This document shows, in pieces, positions 29,904 to 63,498 of a stretch of DNA of 64,000 nucleotides. The stretch covers positions 2,816,001 through 2,880,000 of the forward strand of contig OZ242010.1 of NCBI GenBank assembly GCA_965204745.1. The letters run 5' to 3'. The notes under the pieces were generated by a model. It was given only the letters and a program-made list of their open reading frames with translations. It did not search any database and was not told the DNA's origin. The stretch is from Candidatus Latescibacterota bacterium (GTDB lineage: Bacteria > Latescibacterota > UBA2968). Numbering within the stretch: the stretch's first letter is position 1; each line of letters opens with the position of its first letter. The position numbers and the translations under genes were made by a program.

Positions 29904-30401
29904 TTAGGGTTCTTGGATCGCGGAGTCCCGCAACAGGGCCACGGTGCCGGTGCGCGCGATTTCCAGGATGCCAAAAGAACGCAGCATGCCGATGATGGCC
30001 TGAATTTTGTCGTAGCGGCCCGTGACTTCAATGGTCATGGAATGCGTGCTCACATCCACGATATTTGCGCGGAACACTTCGGCGATTTGAATGACCTCTG
30101 CGCGCGTGGCTGTATCGGCCTTGACTTTGATGAGCACGAGTTCGCGTTCGACAAATTTGCCCTGCGTGATGTCGATCACGCGGATGACGTCGATGAGGCG
30201 GTCCAATTGCTTGACCACCTGCTCGAGCACGCTGTCGTCACCGCCGACAACGATGGTCATGCGCGAGATGCTCGGGTCTTCTGTTTCGCCGACGGACAAG
30301 CTGTCGATGTTGAATCCGCGACTGGAGAAAAGCCCCGAGATGTTGCACAAGACGCCAAAATGGTTTTCGACCAGCGCGCAAATCGTGTGTTTTTGAGTCA
30401 T
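29904..30401 (-). CDS. ilvN: Acetolactate synthase small (regulatory) subunit
   Basis: LVEN..GVL..ISGLFSSRGFNIDSL, SRMTIV, ERELVLIKV, EIARTG. Confidence 0.95.
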   Translation of the reverse strand: MTQKHTICALVENHFGVLCNISGLFSSRGFNIDSLSVGETEDPSISRMTIVVGGDDSVLEQVVKQLDRLIDVIRVIDITQGKFVERELVLIKVKADTATRAEVIQIAEVFRANIVDVSTHSMTIEVTGRYDKIQAIIGMLRSFGILEIARTGTVALLRDSAIQEP

Positions 30402-30439
30402 GAGAATTTCCCGAATCCATGAGGTGACAACGGCCAGTG

Positions 30440-30730
30440 AATCGATCAAAGGCTCTGTCCTGTTGTGGCGTTGTCGTGAAAGTGGGGAAAGAGCCTGCGC
30501 TTAGTGAACGAGAATAGCGAGGGAAAGGCCCGCGATGAGGAGCAGGTGCAGACGCGCGCGACCTGCAATGGAAAGGCGCGAAATGCGGATGACCTGCTGT
30601 CGCAGGTGTCCACCGCTTCGCAAGGTGGAGATCGCCAATGTGGGGATTGAGCGCATGGCAGAACTAGGGAATTGCGTGGTTGCGAATTTCAGATGGCATA
30701 ACCTACGCAACCTAAGTGGAATATGTCAAG
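30440..30730 (-). promoter_or_regulatory. Putative promoter plus Leu/Ile-rich leader peptide (attenuator) of the ilvN-leu operon
   Basis: TTGACA at 30729-30724; uORF 30656-30501 ending LHLLLIAGLSLAILVH*; downstream GGCTCT/AGAGCC pairing. Confidence 0.5.
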
Positions 30731-30849
30731 GAAAAAAACAGCGAAGGGAAGGTGAGAGGTGAGAGGCAAGACGGGAGAGGCAAAGGAGGCAAGAGGTGAG
30801 AAGGCCACCCCTCTCCCCTCTTGTATCGTAAGGGAATCGAGATGCCATC

Positions 30850-30982
30850 TTGAGGCTCGGGGAAGGCCGGCCCCTCTTGAGGCGATGACCTTGTAGGTAA
30901 GATAGGCCCCCCGACCGCCGGGTCTATGCCGAAGGTATCTAAGCCCCTTGAGGCTGCATATACAAGACGGTAGACTTGGCGT
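30850..30982 (+). ncRNA. IS110 bridge RNA (predicted), copy 1
   Basis: Two stem-internal-loop modules; guides GCCCCTCT, AGGTAAG, AGGTATCT and ATACAAG, of which three match the flank or element end. Confidence 0.7.
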
Positions 30983-31050
30983 CAATGGTCGGGACGCGAC
31001 CCCGAGCGCGCACCAGATCCCTTACAACCCCCTCATCACAGGAGGCCCCC

Positions 31051-31965
31051 ATGTCGAAATCTCACCCCGCTTTTGCCGGCATTGATGTCAGTGCCCGCAC
31101 GTTGTCCGTTGCCCTGTCCAGACCCGGACAAGCTGTCATGCAAGCGACCTTTGCCAATGATCCCCAAGCGCATAAGCGGTTGCTGAAGTGGCTCACGAAG
31201 GGCGGGCACATGGTCTCTGTGTGCCTCGAAGCGACCGGGCTTTACAGTTTGGGGGTGGCCTTGGCCTTGCATCGGCATCGCCACACAAAGGTCATGGTCG
31301 TCAATCCCAAAGCGATGAGCAAGTACGCCCAAGCCTGCATGCAACGGGCGAAGACGGATGCGAAGGATGCGTTGTTGATCCTCGACTATGCCGAGCGCAT
31401 GCCTTTTGTGCCTTGGCAAGCGCCGAGCGAGCAACGGCTTCAACTGCAAGCCCTCACCAGACGCATTGACCAACTCAAGCAGGAGATCATCCGCGAACAG
31501 AGCCGCAACCACGCGCAGAGCTACCACATCCGCAGCACACGTCTCATCGCACGCGATATTCAGGTGAATATTCGACACTTCAAACGCCGGATTGCATACT
31601 TGGAAAGCCAAGCCCTCGATCTCGTTTTGCACGATGAGCCCCTCAAGCGTGCCTACCAACGCCTCTGCTCGACGCCTGGCATCGCGCAAACGAGTGCCTT
31701 GCGGCTCTTGGCCGAGTTGACCCTTTTGCCAGAGGAGATGCAACCGCCCCAGTGGGTCGCACATGCAGGCCTGGATCCCAAACCCAAACAATCGGAACCG
31801 CCATCCACAAAGACGCATCTCGAAAACCGGGAATAAGTACCTCCGCCATGCCCTCTATATGCCTGCCTGGGTGGCCATCAGACACGAAGGCCATGTCAAA
31901 GCCTTCTATGACCAACTCATCGCCCGCGGCAAGAAACCTTTGCAGGCTATCGTTGCGGTGATGCG
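31051..31965 (+). pseudogene. IS110 recombinase/transposase, frameshifted near 31800 and truncated
   Basis: GIDVS, CLEATG.Y, VVNP, AKTD.KDA, TPGI, AHAGLDP..KQS, then RISKTGNKYLRHALY in another frame. Confidence 0.88.
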
Positions 31966-32115
31966 ATGGTCCGTTCCAAACTTTTGCGTATCTTACGTCT
32001 TGTACTTTGCACTCGATAACGAATTTGCGCGTCCGCGCTCCTTGGGGCCAGACGATGAGCAGATCGGTACGCAAACGGCCCAAGCCATACTCGCGCTCAA
32101 TATGCCCACCGCTGT

Positions 32116-33501
32116 TCATGATCCTTTGCAAAATTTGCGCGTCCGCGCTCCTTGGGGCCAGACGATGAGCAGATCGGTACGCAAACGGCCCAAGCCATAC
32201 TCGCGCTCAATATGCCCACCGCTGTTCATGATCCTTTGCAAAAACGCCTGTAACAGCAACTGGGGGCCGGCCTCTCGATACGCGAATCGCTTGACCCAAT
32301 GCTCGGAATTTTCGCGGAAAAAGGTCTGGAACGCGACCAGCAATTTGACCACATCCAAACTGCCATCGGCGTTGACGTACCAAGTTGTTTCTTGCTCAAA
32401 TTCCCCTTGGACCACCCACGTCAGTTCGCGGGGCACGACTTCGGCGTAGATCGGATTGGCGATGTGATACGGCTGATCTTGACCCACGAGCCCGAGATCC
32501 TGTACATACTCCAAATCGCGATCCGTGAAGTGGCGGTCCTCATCGCCGCCGCTCAAGATCGGTTCGATAATGCGTTGCACGCGGTCTTCTTTGAGTTTGT
32601 CAGCCAACTGGTCGAGATGTGTTTCGCGGCGCAAGATGAGTTGTTCTTGGGCTTCTCGGATGTCGTCCTCGGTGATCGGATCAATCCGCGCCTCTGCGGC
32701 CTCGTCTCGGAAGCAGGTTTCATCCGCCAGCGCGTTGACCAGCCAGGGCTGTCCTTGCGTCTGCGTCCAGATCAATTCCAGCGCGTCAGGCGTAAATACC
32801 TGCCCGGTTCCCTCGGTGTGTTGCGCGAGCAGGGCGTGTACCTCGTCCTGCGAAAAGTCGCCCAAGCGCAGGGATCGCGCCTTGATGTTAAACGCGCTCC
32901 CGCCAGTGATGGTCGCATTCGCAGAACCGGAATGGATGCGGTAATCGCGCACGTCGCGCACCCCGCACAAAATCACGCTTTGCGGAAAGTGCTCAGGACG
33001 CTGGTCGTAGCCAGCGCGCAACTGCCGCAACACAGAGAGGAGCGAGTCGCCAATCAGCGAATCGATCTCGTCAATGAGCAGCACCAAGGGGGTCGGATCT
33101 ACCTCGGCCCAGCGCGTCAACGCCTCTTGCAAAGCCGCATCTGGTCCGACCTCGGCAAGGAGACCTGACCAGACCTTGCCCAAAAAGTCGTCGCCCAAGG
33201 TCATGCGTGCCCGAGACGCCAATCCAGCCAGAATAGCGCGCATCACCCGTTCCACATCTTCGCGTGCGGCCTGCCCGGCTTCAACATTGACGTACACGCA
33301 GCGGTACGCGCCTTCGGCGTTGAGCAAATCGCGCAAGGCCAGCAGGGCCGAGGTCTTGCCCGTTTGCCGAGGCGCGTGCAACACAAAGTAGCGTTTGTCC
33401 CGGATGAGGCGGCGCACCTCGTTGAGATTCAATCGCTCCAAAGGCGGAATGCAGTAGTGATCCGCAACCACCACCGGCCCGCTGGTGTTGAAGAAGCGCA
33501 T
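32116..33501 (-). CDS. AAA-like ATPase with C-terminal PD-(D/E)xK-like domain; 3' end disrupted
   Basis: MRFFNTSGP, HAPRQTGKT, LLIDEID, GSAFNIK, REYGLGR.RTDL; 110-bp tandem duplication at 32022-32241. Confidence 0.85.
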   Translation of the reverse strand: MRFFNTSGPVVVADHYCIPPLERLNLNEVRRLIRDKRYFVLHAPRQTGKTSALLALRDLLNAEGAYRCVYVNVEAGQAAREDVERVMRAILAGLASRARMTLGDDFLGKVWSGLLAEVGPDAALQEALTRWAEVDPTPLVLLIDEIDSLIGDSLLSVLRQLRAGYDQRPEHFPQSVILCGVRDVRDYRIHSGSANATITGGSAFNIKARSLRLGDFSQDEVHALLAQHTEGTGQVFTPDALELIWTQTQGQPWLVNALADETCFRDEAAEARIDPITEDDIREAQEQLILRRETHLDQLADKLKEDRVQRIIEPILSGGDEDRHFTDRDLEYVQDLGLVGQDQPYHIANPIYAEVVPRELTWVVQGEFEQETTWYVNADGSLDVVKLLVAFQTFFRENSEHWVKRFAYREAGPQLLLQAFLQRIMNSGGHIEREYGLGRLRTDLLIVWPQGARTRKFCKGS

Positions 33502-44675: not shown

Positions 44676-44687
44676 CACCCGAAAAAA

Positions 44688-44769
44688 GGTGAGAAGGTAG
44701 AGGCAAGACGTGAGAAGGCCACCCCAAAAAAGTGAGAAGGTAGAGGTAAGACGTGAGAAGGCCACCCCT
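44688..44769. repeat. REP-like repeats (GTGAGAAGG/GAGGYAAGACG) forming the IS110 target
   Basis: Related units at 30750-30819, 45531-45560 (inverted) and 10926-10960. Confidence 0.7.
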
Positions 44770-45532
44770 CTTGTATCTTGGAAGTAAGGGTTAATTAGGA
44801 GTTGCGCCCTCGTATCGAGATAAGCCATCTTGATGCCCGGCTCGGGGAAGGCCGGCCCCTCTTGAAGGCGATGACCTTGTAGGTAAGATAGGCCCCCCGA
44901 CCGCCGGGTCTATGCCGAAGAGTATCTAAGTCCCTTGAGGCTGCATATACAAGACCGGTAGACTTGGCGTCAATGGTCGGGATCGAACTCGAGCGCACAC
45001 CAGACCCCTTACAACCCCTCATCACAGGAGGCCCCCATGTCGAAATCTCAACCCGCTTTCGCCGGCATTGATGTCAGTGCCCGCACGTTGTCTGTTGCCC
45101 TGTCCAGACCCGGACAAGCTGTCATGCAAGCGACCTTTGCCAATGATCCCCAAGCCCATAAGCGGTTGCTGAAGTGGCTCACCAAGGGCGGGCACATGGT
45201 CTCTGTGTGCCTCGAAGCGACCGGGCTTTACAGCTTGGGGGTGGCCTTGGCCTTGCATCGGCATCGCCACACAAAGGTCATGGTCGTCAATCCCAAAGCG
45301 ATGAGCAAGTACGGTCAAGCCCGCATGCAACGAGCCAAGACGGATGCGAAGGATGCGTTGTTGATCATGGATTATGCCGAGCGCATGCGTTTGTGCCTTG
45401 CCGAGTGAGCAACGGCTTCAACTGCAAGCCCTCACCAGACGCATTTCAAGCGATCATCAGTGAACAGAGCCGCAACCACGCGCAAAGCTACCACATCCTC
45501 ATCGCACGCGATATTCAGGTGAATATTCGACA
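44770..45532 (+). mobile_element. IS110-family element, copy 2 (5' half, multiple deletions)
   Basis: Colinear with copy 1; left end CTTGTAT; transposase fragment 45037-45530. Confidence 0.85.
44835..44970 (+). ncRNA. IS110 bridge RNA (predicted), copy 2
   Basis: Guides GCCCCTCT (44855), AGGTAAG (44881), AGAGTATCT (44919), ATACAAG (44947). Confidence 0.7.
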
Positions 45533-45608
45533 CCTCTTGCCTCTCCCGTCTTGCGTCTTGGCTCACACCGGCTTATCGTATATCTTCTCAAACACCGCGT
45601 CCGCGCCT

Positions 45609-54778: not shown

Positions 54779-55607
54779 CCCCCCTTCCTAAGAGGAAGGG
54801 GGGAACGCGGATGGGTTTTGCGAGAGGATAGCGTGAGGGATTTTTAATCGCTTTATAGCCCTCGTTCAACGCCATCAAAACAGCGATTGATATAAGCCAT
54901 CAAAGGAGCTTTACTCCCCTTTCCTCGCAGGAAAGGGGCCGGGGGATAGGTCCCATACCCTATGCCCTCGCGCAACGCCATTAAAACGGCCATGGATATA
55001 AGCCATCAAAGGAGCTTTGCTCCCCTTTCCTCGCAGGAAAGGGGCCGGGGGATAGGTCCCATACCCTATGCCCTCGGTCAACGCCATCAAAACAGCGATT
55101 GATATAAGCCATCAAAGGAGCTTTGCTCCCCTTTCCTCGCAGGAAAGGGGCCGGGGGATAGGTCCCATGCCCTATGCCCTATGCCCTCGGTCAACGCCAT
55201 CAAAACAGCGATTGATATAAGCCATCAAAGGAGCTTTGCTCCCCTTTCCTCGCAGGAAAGGGGCCGGGGGATAGGTCCCATACCCTATGCCCGTGCTCAA
55301 CGCCATCAGAGCAACCATAGATATAAGCCATCAAAAGAGCTTTGCTCCCCTTTCCTCGCAGGCACAGGCGTAGCCTACAATGAGCGAAGCGAATAACGGG
55401 GCCGGGGGATAGGTCCCATACCCCATGCCCGTGCGCAACGCCATTAAAACGGCCATGGATATAAGCCATCAAAAGAGCTTTACTCCCCTTTCCTCTCAGG
55501 AAAGGGGCCGGGGGATAGGTCCCATACCCTAGGCCCTCGGTCAACGCCATCAAAGGAGCTTTACTCCCCTTTCCTCGCAGGAAAGGGGCCGGGGGATAGG
55601 TCCCATG
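54765..55607. repeat. Tandem array of seven ~106-bp REP-hairpin units plus a leading inverted REP
   Basis: CAACGCCA recurs at 54867, 54973, 55079, 55192, 55298, 55436, 55542; units carry CCCCTTTCCT-N3-AGGAAAGGGG (interrupted in unit 5). Confidence 0.93.
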
Positions 55608-61944: not shown

Positions 61945-63498
61945 ATGTTGAAGCGTATGTTTGGTTGTTTCGCAGTTGTCTTGTTGGCGCTGGCAATGCA
62001 ACAGCCCGTTGCCGCACAAAACAGTGCCGACTTTGATGGCGATGGCACGGTGGGCTTTGCAGACTTCTTGGCGTTTGCAGGGCAATTTGGTGCCCAGCGC
62101 GGAGACGGCAGATACCAAGCCAAATTTGATCTGAATAGCGATGGCAAGATTGATTTTGCAGACTTTCTACGCTTTGCCAGCAGCTATGGTCAGTCAGTGC
62201 CACCTAGTGGCGGGGGCGGTAGCGGGGGCGGTAGTAGCGGCGGCGGCGGGGGCAGTGGTGGTAGTGGTGGCGGTAGTAGCAGTCCCGATCTGATCGTTGA
62301 ATCGCCTTCTGTCAGCGATAGCACGCTGACGCCTGGGCAATCCTTCACCCTGCAAGTCACCGTTCGCAATCGGGGCACGGGGCAATCAGCCTCGACGACC
62401 CTGACCTATTACCGCTCGTCCAATTCGACGATCTCTACGAGCGATACAGAAGTGAGCACGGATTCGGTCAGCGGTCTGTCCGCTTCGGGCACAGGTTCGG
62501 AATCGATCAGGCTAACTGCTCCGTCGAGTACCGGCACGTATTACTACGGCGCGTGTGTGGCAAGCGTCAGCGGCGAGACCGATACCCGCAACAACTGCTC
62601 AACAGGCGTGCGCGTTACGGTGAGTGGCGGCGGCGGTAGCACGGAAGTTGTTATTCCCGATGCCAACCTTCGCGCTGAAATTGAGAGCCGTTTGGGCAAG
62701 GCACGCGGTGCGCCGATCACACGGGCAGACATGGCGAGCTTGACGCTGATTGACGCGGGAGGTGCGGGCATTAACGATTTGACAGGGCTTGAGTATGCAA
62801 CCAACCTGACAACGTTAGGGCTTAGCGGCAACCAGATCTCGGATATCGCCGCATTATCGGGATTAACCAACCTGACAAAGTTATGGCTTTGGAGCAACCA
62901 AATCTCGGATATCGCCGCATTATCGGGTTTAACCAAACTGACAGAGTTACGGCTTAGCGGCAACCAAATCTCGGATATCGCCCCACTATCGGGATTAACC
63001 AAACTGACATTCTTAACCCTTTCCGGCAACCAGATCTCGGATATCGCCGCATTATCGGGATTAACCAAACTGACATACTTAAACCTTCGCGGCAACCGAA
63101 TCTCGGATATCGCCCCACTATCGAGATTAACCAACCTGACATCGTTACTGCTTAACGACAACCAAATCTCGGATATCGCCGCGCTAGCGGGATTAACCAA
63201 CCTGACATGGTTATCCCTTTACGACAACCAAATCTCGGATATCGCCGCATTATCGGGATTAACCAACCTGACAAAGTTATGGCTTTGGAGCAACCAAATC
63301 TCGGATATCGCCGCATTATCGGGATTAACCAACCTGACAGAGTTAGACCTTGATCGCAACCGTATCTCGGATATCGCCGCATTATCGGGATTAACCAACC
63401 TGAGAGTGTTATACCTTCAAGACAACCCGTTGAGTGCCACATCAAGAAACACGCACATTCCGGCACTTCGGGCCAGAGGGGTTACGGTGATTTTTTAG
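61945..63498 (+). CDS. Secreted EF-hand/dockerin + Gly linker + CARDB + internalin-type LRR protein
   Basis: Signal peptide; DFDGDGTVGFADF and DLNSDGKIDFADF; PDLIVES...YYYGACV; IPDANLR cap; about nine 22-aa LRRs (66-bp repeats). Confidence 0.92.
   Translation: MLKRMFGCFAVVLLALAMQQPVAAQNSADFDGDGTVGFADFLAFAGQFGAQRGDGRYQAKFDLNSDGKIDFADFLRFASSYGQSVPPSGGGGSGGGSSGGGGGSGGSGGGSSSPDLIVESPSVSDSTLTPGQSFTLQVTVRNRGTGQSASTTLTYYRSSNSTISTSDTEVSTDSVSGLSASGTGSESIRLTAPSSTGTYYYGACVASVSGETDTRNNCSTGVRVTVSGGGGSTEVVIPDANLRAEIESRLGKARGAPITRADMASLTLIDAGGAGINDLTGLEYATNLTTLGLSGNQISDIAALSGLTNLTKLWLWSNQISDIAALSGLTKLTELRLSGNQISDIAPLSGLTKLTFLTLSGNQISDIAALSGLTKLTYLNLRGNRISDIAPLSRLTNLTSLLLNDNQISDIAALAGLTNLTWLSLYDNQISDIAALSGLTNLTKLWLWSNQISDIAALSGLTNLTELDLDRNRISDIAALSGLTNLRVLYLQDNPLSATSRNTHIPALRARGVTVIF

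Follow-up and report, generated by a model that had tools for sequence, protein, structure and literature searches.

Decayed copies of an IS110/IS621-type insertion sequence with a predicted bridge RNA in a Candidatus Latescibacterota genome

The window analysed here is a 64,000-nt stretch of DNA from Candidatus Latescibacterota bacterium (contig OZ242010.1 of assembly GCA_965204745.1; G000:C1:2816001-2880000 under our genome label, G000), and it holds two incomplete copies of one insertion sequence, referred to as copy 1 and copy 2 (Table 1). Both copies begin with CTTGTAT (at 30820 and 44770) directly after a CCCCT, continue with a leader of about 230–270 nt, and then enter an ATG-initiated gene. 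Copy 1 is flanked on one side by a gene for the acetolactate-synthase small subunit (29904-30449) and on the other by an AAA-ATPase gene (32116-33501), both on the minus strand. A preliminary description of this DNA, made from its letters alone, had read the leader as an IS110 bridge RNA composed of two stem-enclosed modules, and we found all of the stems and loops that it quoted, at 30857-30980 and again at 44842-44968, with the strings confined, or nearly so, to the two element copies within the window. We consider it highly probable (about 0.92) that both copies are decayed members of an IS110/IS621-type insertion sequence whose left end contains a leader-encoded bridge RNA, a reading that draws on comparison with intact copies of the element and with its relatives.

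Table 1. Parts of the two element copies and their flanks in the window (window coordinates)
Feature	Position	Strand	Remarks
Left flank of copy 1	30742..30819	.	heptamer-type array (GGTGAGA / GGCAAGA units) passing into CCTCTCCCCT; CCCCT at 30815-30819
Copy 1, probable decayed IS110/IS621-type element	30820..31966	+	compared with 30 identical master copies
Predicted bridge-RNA two-module region, copy 1	30856..30994	+	covariance model 143 bits, three 1-nt gaps
Target module outer stem, copy 1	30857-30868 with 30905-30914	+	TCGGGGAAGGCC from 30857, GGCCCCCCGA from 30905
Predicted left target guide CCCCTCT, copy 1	30871-30877	+	within GCCCCTCT, from 30870
Predicted right target guide AGGTAAG, copy 1	30895-30901	+	
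Donor module stem, copy 1	30917-30926 with 30971-30980	+	GCCGGGTCTA from 30917, TAGACTTGGC from 30971
Predicted left donor guide AGGTATCT, copy 1	30933-30940	+	one A lost
Predicted right donor guide ATACAAG, copy 1	30960-30966	+	
Recombinase gene remnant, copy 1	31052..31966	+	ATG at 31052; frameshifts by 1-base deletions near 31792 and 31802; truncated at 31966
Left flank of copy 2	44683..44769	.	two 43-nt repeat units, each ending GGCCACCCC; CCCCT at 44765-44769
Copy 2 of the element	44770..45533	+	cut at reference position 797; gene remnant from ATG at 45037
Predicted bridge-RNA two-module region, copy 2	44841..44982	+	covariance model 167 bits, no gaps; four guides intact
Target module, copy 2	TCGGGGAAGGCC 44842, GGCCCCCCGA 44891, GCCCCTCT 44855, AGGTAAG 44881	+	
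Donor module, copy 2	GCCGGGTCTA 44903, TAGACTTGGC 44959, AGAGTATCT 44919, ATACAAG 44947	+	
Heptamer-array sequence (CTCTTGCCTCTCCCGTCTTGCG...)	45534..45560	.	abuts the internal truncation of copy 2; not a right-end junction

Using the window copy as a blastn query, we recovered 52 full-length copies of a 1295-bp element across the genome, in addition to fragments, where the length counts the CT dinucleotide at both ends. Thirty of the 52 copies are 100% identical, seven reach at least 99%, eight stand at 96.1%, two at about 95% and five at 88–89%, and the open 335-aa frame is kept in all copies except one (51 of 52). The element termini (CT-TGTATC... and ...GAGTAT-CT) form no inverted repeats, and CT stands at both junctions in every full-length copy. 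The preliminary description had asked whether intact copies would terminate in AGAGTAT|CT, and all 52 do, just as all 52 start with CT|TGTAT, so that the donor it had put forward, AGAGTAT-CT-TGTAT, is exact. In the intact element the leader upstream of the gene measures 269 nt, and the frame ends at element position 1277 of 1295, leaving 18 nt from the stop codon to the right end. Element DNA totals about 67 kb in this 5.5-Mb genome, in which all 57 matches to the IS110 DEDD domain fall within this one family. Among 30 genomes of relatives searched, three carry the element, with 9 (G016), 19 (G018) and 4 (G030) matches, and in the remaining 27 it was not found with the query used. At G000:C1:1121591-1124182 two copies lie head to tail, one identical to the master and one from the 96% subfamily, separated by CT-TACCT-CT alone. 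At G000:C1:1668778 there is a leader-like sequence beginning CTTGTATCTTGCGAGA, which resembles the left end of the G016 relatives, has no IS110-domain match nearby and may be a solo leader remnant.

The recombinase of the intact element (P0001) matches the Pfam domains DEDD_Tnp_IS110 (PF01548, 1.2e-24) over residues 9-154 and Transposase_20 (PF02371, 4.8e-20) over residues 203-287. Its best match among solved structures is the ISCro4 recombinase (PDB 9t56, E = 7.6e-40, residues 7-326), and it aligns over nearly its full length with the IS621 recombinase (PDB 8wt6 series, E = 5.8e-36). Specifically, the motifs GIDVS, CLEATG, KTDAKDA and RISKTG supply residues D12, E60, D103, D106 and S258, which align opposite D11, E60, D102, D105 and S241, the catalytic residues of IS621 (PMC11208158; here and below, statements about published systems follow excerpts of the cited papers). 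The protein has both IS110 domains, the DEDD RuvC-like one at its N terminus and, at its C terminus, the Tnp domain with a putative catalytic serine. The same Pfam protein family also spans the IS1111/seekRNA branch, and were the element a member of that branch, its guide RNA would lie downstream of the gene and its leader would be unrelated to targeting. We give this possibility almost no weight, because the 18 nt between the stop codon and the right end leave no room for a downstream guide RNA and because the four guide matches described below all fall in the upstream leader.

An IS621-type element is expected to encode its guide RNA in the left end, and we drew up the structure of the leader as two modules, one for the target and one for the donor, that each combine an outer stem with an inner hairpin. 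Pairs were counted over 20 distinct leaders (alignment A1), and the G030 leader, the row of which MAFFT had shifted by one base in the target-loop stem, was compared separately, by a covariance-model alignment and by eye. The two-module structure pairs in 90.5% of cells, against 31–45% when the partners are slid by 1–3 columns, with the four module helices paired at 99, 100, 92 and 100% and with six pairs showing compensatory changes. The 5′ stem-loop of the leader is not conserved (45–75% paired). A covariance model of both modules, a check that the preliminary description had suggested, picked out only the two element copies when run over the 64-kb window, at the positions and scores given in Table 1, and the next-best match had E = 0.91. 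A search of window positions 30300-32300 against Rfam at E values up to 10 returned only noise, with no bridge-RNA family among the matches and an unrelated microRNA model at the top (18.7 bits, E = 3.1). The leader of roughly 270 nt would be read as a bridge RNA with two internal-loop modules, one predicted to bind the target and the other the donor.

The window's target loop occurs in 45 copies, and their insertion sites define what it would recognize. Twenty copies sit between CCCCT and TACCT, 17 between CCCCT and TGCCT, one between CCCCT and TACTT and one between CCCCT and TGCCC, the others being exceptions to which we return below; counted by side, 41 of the 45 copies have CCCCT on the left, and on the right 24 have TACCT and 17 have TGCCT. 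From these sites, therefore, the loop CCCCUCU equals the left target plus the CT core in top-strand sense, whereas the opposite loop AGGUAAG is the complement of the core plus TACCT, with TGCCT covered by U-G wobble. The left target guide would pair with the bottom strand over the left target and the CT core, and the right target guide with the core and the right target, TGCCT being accepted through the wobble pair. A perfect or wobble site is present in 37 of the 45 copies, and the remaining eight show 1–3 mismatches. The perfect 12-mer is occupied in 20 of its 25 genomic occurrences (5 free) vs 17 of 82 (65 free) for the wobble 12-mer (Fisher p = 1.2e-7).

These sites also define the sequence context of the target. 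The flanks consist of tandem heptamers such as CCTCTTG, CCTCTTA and CCTCTCC, with the 12-bp site covering two neighbouring units, and the predicted target, CCCCTCTTACCT, recurs in the (CCTCTYN)n arrays of the genome. Tandem Repeats Finder reported 1119 period-7 arrays in the genome, together about 38 kb and mainly of the ACTGACN and CCTCTYN classes, and it is the (CCTCTYN)n arrays that are the landing pad of the element. The preliminary description had called the target a repetitive extragenic palindromic (REP) sequence, which has to be given up, as the site is a heptanucleotide tandem array and not a classical palindromic REP. Its equation of CCCCTCT with the left flank plus the CT core at both window insertions is borne out, since CCCCT precedes both 30820 and 44770. 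The target that it proposed, about CCCCTCTTRCCT, describes the sites of 37 of the 45 copies, except that its leading A is peculiar to the window flanks and is mostly T in the genome-wide flank logo. Similarly, it had compared AGGTAAG with a CTTGCCT after copy 2 (45536); TGCCT is indeed a true right flank of the element, but the junction at that point follows an internal truncation (reference position 797) and not the right end.

The donor module reads the ends of the element in the same manner. AGAGUAUCU, the left donor guide, agrees with the right end AGAGTATCT at 9 of 9 positions, and the right donor guide AUACAAG (AUAUACAAG) complements the left end CTTGTAT at 7 of 7 positions, in agreement with the earlier reading of ATACAAG as the reverse complement of the element's first bases. 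Thus AGAGUAUCU would read the right end while AUAUACAAG would pair with CT-TGTAT at the left end. The donor loop of the relatives carries AUAGACAAG, a 9-on-7 discontiguous pattern of a kind mentioned for IS621 (PMC11208160). In IS621 the left target guide has top-strand sense, the right target guide is complementary and the core is present in all four guides (PMC11208160), and the order of left target, right target, left donor and right donor guides around a CT core that had been proposed for the window matches this strand logic.

Across copies and relatives, a change in the guides goes with a change in the flanks. In the genome itself, copy L002, with guides TCCCTCT and AGGTGAG, sits between TCCCT-CT and CT-CACCT. 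In the 88%-identity subfamily of five copies, four have the left guide CGCCTCT, with left flanks CGCCT-CT in three and CACCT-CT in one, and the fifth has TGCCTCT beside TACCT-CT; the right guide is AAGTAAG in all five, with right flanks CT-TACTT in four and CT-TACCT in one. The element proteins of the Latescibacterota metagenome-assembled genomes G016 and G018 are 76–84% identical. In G016 the guides TCCYCCT and AGAAAAG accompany flanks ..CCYC-CT and CT-TTTCT, and in G018 the guides CTCGCCTCT and AGGGAG accompany CTCGCCT-CT and CT-CCCGT, where CTCGCCTCT equals the commonest left flank plus core over 9 nt. More distantly, the right guide CCGUUAG of a Gemmatimonadota locus (L031, 48% identity) faces CT-AACGG, its left side lying beyond the contig edge, and the right guide ACGUUAG of G030 (L033-L035, 54% identity) faces CT-AACGT in all three copies. 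The left target guide of G030 ends in AU, and its left and right junctions differ in their 'core' letters. Over 77 insertions, the elements' own guides match 665 of 752 non-core positions, a total reached by none of 5000 guide-type shuffles, although the lineages are few and related, so that this figure overstates significance and is to be taken as qualitatively strong and not as a true probability. The own-type guide scores highest in six of eight guide-type groups. The target loop appears to have been rewritten at least five times among close relatives, tracking heptad variants of the repeat system.

This pattern bears on a second explanation, in which the leader merely belongs to the transposase mRNA, as a structured 5′ untranslated region or a regulatory element, the protein picks the target, and the identities between loops and flanks are by-products of the repeats. 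We regard it as very improbable, because single-base differences in the loop follow single-base differences in the flank, both in L002 versus the main family and in CCGUUAG/CT-AACGG versus ACGUUAG/CT-AACGT; because the donor loop stays constant, matching the conserved element ends in every lineage while the target loop varies; and because the recombinase is homologous to enzymes shown to be RNA-guided.

Activity of the element is supported indirectly, by its 30 identical copies and by one empty-site allele. To a 19.7-kb stretch containing two identical element copies we aligned Logan contigs from four runs belonging to four studies. Runs X2, X3 and X5 each have one contig that passes straight from position 591 to 1885 and omits 1293 bp, with 4 ambiguous letters. 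The omitted piece (1295 − 2) is the exact outline of the copy at L032 593-1887, and its absence restores CCCCT-CT-TACCT. When the element ends are joined in silico, TTGACC from the right end and TATCTT from the left end come to lie 18 nt apart and give a score of 9/12, and every lineage seen has a TTGAC-type hexamer (TTGACC, or TTGAAC in G018) 15–16 nt from the right end. A junction promoter has been described for IS621 (PMC11208160, PMC11208158). By analogy with IS621 and its relatives, the RNA would be made from such a promoter on a circular form of the element, and the recombination chemistry would be theirs.

Several observations weigh against a functional bridge RNA in this leader, in addition to the relatedness of the lineages, and the first three of them would equally suit an untranslated region whose loops resemble the flanks as a by-product of the repeats. 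No RNA run was among the public runs found to carry the stretch; the targets are low-complexity repeats in hundreds of arrays, which inflates raw match counts; and the folding z-scores are weak (intact leader, −2.26; window copy 1, −2.12). The minimum-energy fold misses the outer stem of module 1, the 5′ strand of which pairs with a downstream CCCCGAG, and covariation is shallow, with about seven lineages and an effective sequence number of 1.19 in the covariance model. Of the 45 copies whose target loop is that of the window, four are inserted at TACCT + TACCT, departing from the left guide, and two at CCCCT + CCCGT, departing from the right guide. The relatives also show imperfections: the fourth right-target base is consistently mismatched in G018, the left flanks of G016 match at only 6–8 of 9 positions, and in two of the three G030 copies the left junction is AT and not CT, with CT at the right junctions. 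In copy L005 (G000:C1:602780-604074) only 7 of 10 positions fit the copy's own guides, TGCCTCT and AAGTAAG, its flanks being TCCCT-CT-CACCT, which better suit the guides of L002; its leader is an apparent mosaic of the 88% and 96% subfamilies, which suggests recombination between copies after insertion. With regard to mobility, the short side of the empty-site joint measures 26 letters, under the caution line of 30, and lies inside a heptamer array; among the joints listed, an empty site is seen for one of the two copies, and run X1 has no cover at the joint. Finally, a promoter scan of the integrated left end found no sigma-70-like promoter.

The state of the two window copies is a separate matter from their kind. 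Compared with the master sequence, copy 1 carries 11 deletions but no substitution in about 1150 nt, and it ends at reference position 1187 with the right end absent. Its first 70 nt have lost five pieces, 35 nt in all, and single bases are missing at reference positions 96 (in the target-loop inner stem), 152 (in the left donor guide), 186, 1012 and 1023, of which the last two are frameshifts; four of these five single-base losses sit in two-base runs. Copy 2 differs from the master at about 30 places, through substitutions as well as deletions, and its guide module is intact, although both the right end and a working gene are absent from it. Copy 1 most likely does not function, and its deletion-only pattern beside a duplication could reflect real decay or consensus error.

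We think it likely that the window copies are dead relics, possibly distorted by assembly, with no functional RNA or recombinase of their own, and that function resides only in intact copies elsewhere. The deletion-only divergence of copy 1, followed by its truncation and by a perfect 110-bp duplication, is compatible with consensus errors in a repeat, its target-loop inner stem and its left donor guide have each lost a base, and since both copies are without the right end, neither can form the junction promoter. On the other hand, the complete guide module of copy 2 outscores that of copy 1 in the covariance model (167 bits) and could work in trans, provided that read-through transcribes it. 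Being relics concerns the state of the two copies and is compatible with their identity as IS110/IS621-type elements.

The duplication just past truncated copy 1 (32022-32241) is a perfect tandem repeat of 110 bp at the 3′ end of the AAA-ATPase gene, which may be an assembly artefact or real, and 93-nt stretches related to it recur at several further sites in the genome. Between the truncated end of copy 1 and this duplication are 55 nt (31967-32021) that contain GCGTATCTTACGTCTTGTAC, which resembles a degenerate junction of right end, flank and left end from a related element. Other repeats lie elsewhere in the window. One is a 66-bp tandem array with at least nine units, another is about 106 bp long and present five times, a third is a dispersed repeat of 282 nt present three times, and the last is a pair of sequences, at least 300 nt long, that are 99% identical; the coordinates listed for them are 62667-63493; 54846-55606; 5199/18633/21234; 9684/63507.

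The first 10 nt of the element, CTTGTATCTT, occur 212 times in the genome, 160 of them outside the element. Ninety of these modules are followed by a REP-like hairpin, YGGGCGAGCACGGGGGCATCGCCC, and they are usually preceded by a left-target-like CCT (e.g. G000:C1:1426500, 778368 and 747868). The window flanks at 30742-30819 and 44683-44769 consist of repeat material related to these hairpin modules. We considered whether the modules are miniature elements and dropped the idea, as 83 of the 90 lack an AGTATCT within 400 nt and a GGCTAA...TCT end is found within 500 nt in only 28 of the 90. More speculatively, the element and the host repeat system could be entangled beyond targeting, with the CTTGTATCTT modules being solo left-target/right-donor junctions or non-autonomous partners, generated or mobilized by bridge-recombinase activity, for example by the 'direct transfer' of the left junction by an RNA containing only the target loop that is reported for CazIS110-1 (10.1101/2025.10.25.684509); we think this unlikely.

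A blastn search of the intact element against Escherichia coli genomes gave no match at the DNA level, placing its relatedness to IS621 at the protein level only, and for this reason the IS621 RNA was compared through published descriptions only, with donor positions 6-10 taken from PMC11208158. The two systems share a protein with DEDD RuvC-like and Tnp domains and a guide RNA in the left end, two pseudo-symmetric modules each composed of a stem, a guide, a stem-loop and a second guide (PMC11208158, PMC11208160), and the strand logic of the four guides with a CT core common to both. The likeness extends to details: donor positions 6-10 are A-T-C-T-T in both (IS621 numbering, PMC11208158), a GU linker precedes the 7-nt right target guide, and an AU 'handshake' follows it, which can pair with donor positions 6-7 (AT) after strand exchange (PMC11208158). 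Moreover, a -35-like hexamer near the right end would meet a -10-like hexamer of the left end only on a circle, much like the junction promoter described for IS621, and a wobble-variant target is tolerated in both, as in the natural IS621 site ATCAGGCCTAC versus the encoded ATCGGGCCTAC (PMC11208160). Differences are found in the target, which is the E. coli REP for IS621 and a heptamer tandem array here; in the left target guide, which is 9 nt in IS621 whereas here it is effectively 7 including the core, the 5′ side of the loop being about 3 nt shorter; and in the right target guide, of which IS621 uses 4 nt, extendable to 7, whereas here 7 nt pair natively. The present element, unlike IS621, is known from sequence alone, and it is found as 52 copies in one genome.

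Other members of the family offer further points of comparison. ISCro4 has the same catalytic motifs and differs in host lineage and target. ISPpu9 and ISPpu10 of Pseudomonas putida likewise belong to the IS110 family and use as insertion site an intergenic repeat present in many copies in their host, but their targets are palindromic REP or conserved intergenic sequences, as opposed to the two adjacent 7-bp tandem units used here (PMC12288879, 10.64898/2026.03.19.712850). CazIS110-1 of Caloranaerobacter azorensis is a bridge-RNA IS110 reported to copy out while preserving the donor copy (10.1101/2025.10.25.684509), a mode that would fit the 30 identical copies seen here; the term 'tandem repeat' in that preprint, in the excerpts consulted, denotes tandem cargo copies and not a repeat target. 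Our literature search found no paper combining IS110 with a heptanucleotide, and among papers on IS110 in sponge symbionts, or on Latescibacter, sponges and transposases, the titles and abstract openings revealed none on this element, although the element or a close relative may already be among the many predicted orthologues in the supplementary tables of PMC11208160. The element would work like IS621, and every sequence-level feature of IS621-type membership that we tested is present in it.

The element provides a well-resolved natural example of a bridge-recombinase family, in which 52 copies give the exact ends, a 12-bp target and the donor. Its natural target-loop variants, found within one genome and among relatives and each in its encoded site, constitute a panel for guide rules, and this panel also bears on wobble tolerance and guide length outside the elements of E. 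coli. The known mechanism of bridge recombinases is unchanged by it, and we regard it as a clear but ordinary addition to the family. What it adds is that a 7-bp tandem array can serve the family as a landing pad with many copies, which would have helped the burst to about 67 kb of element DNA in this genome.

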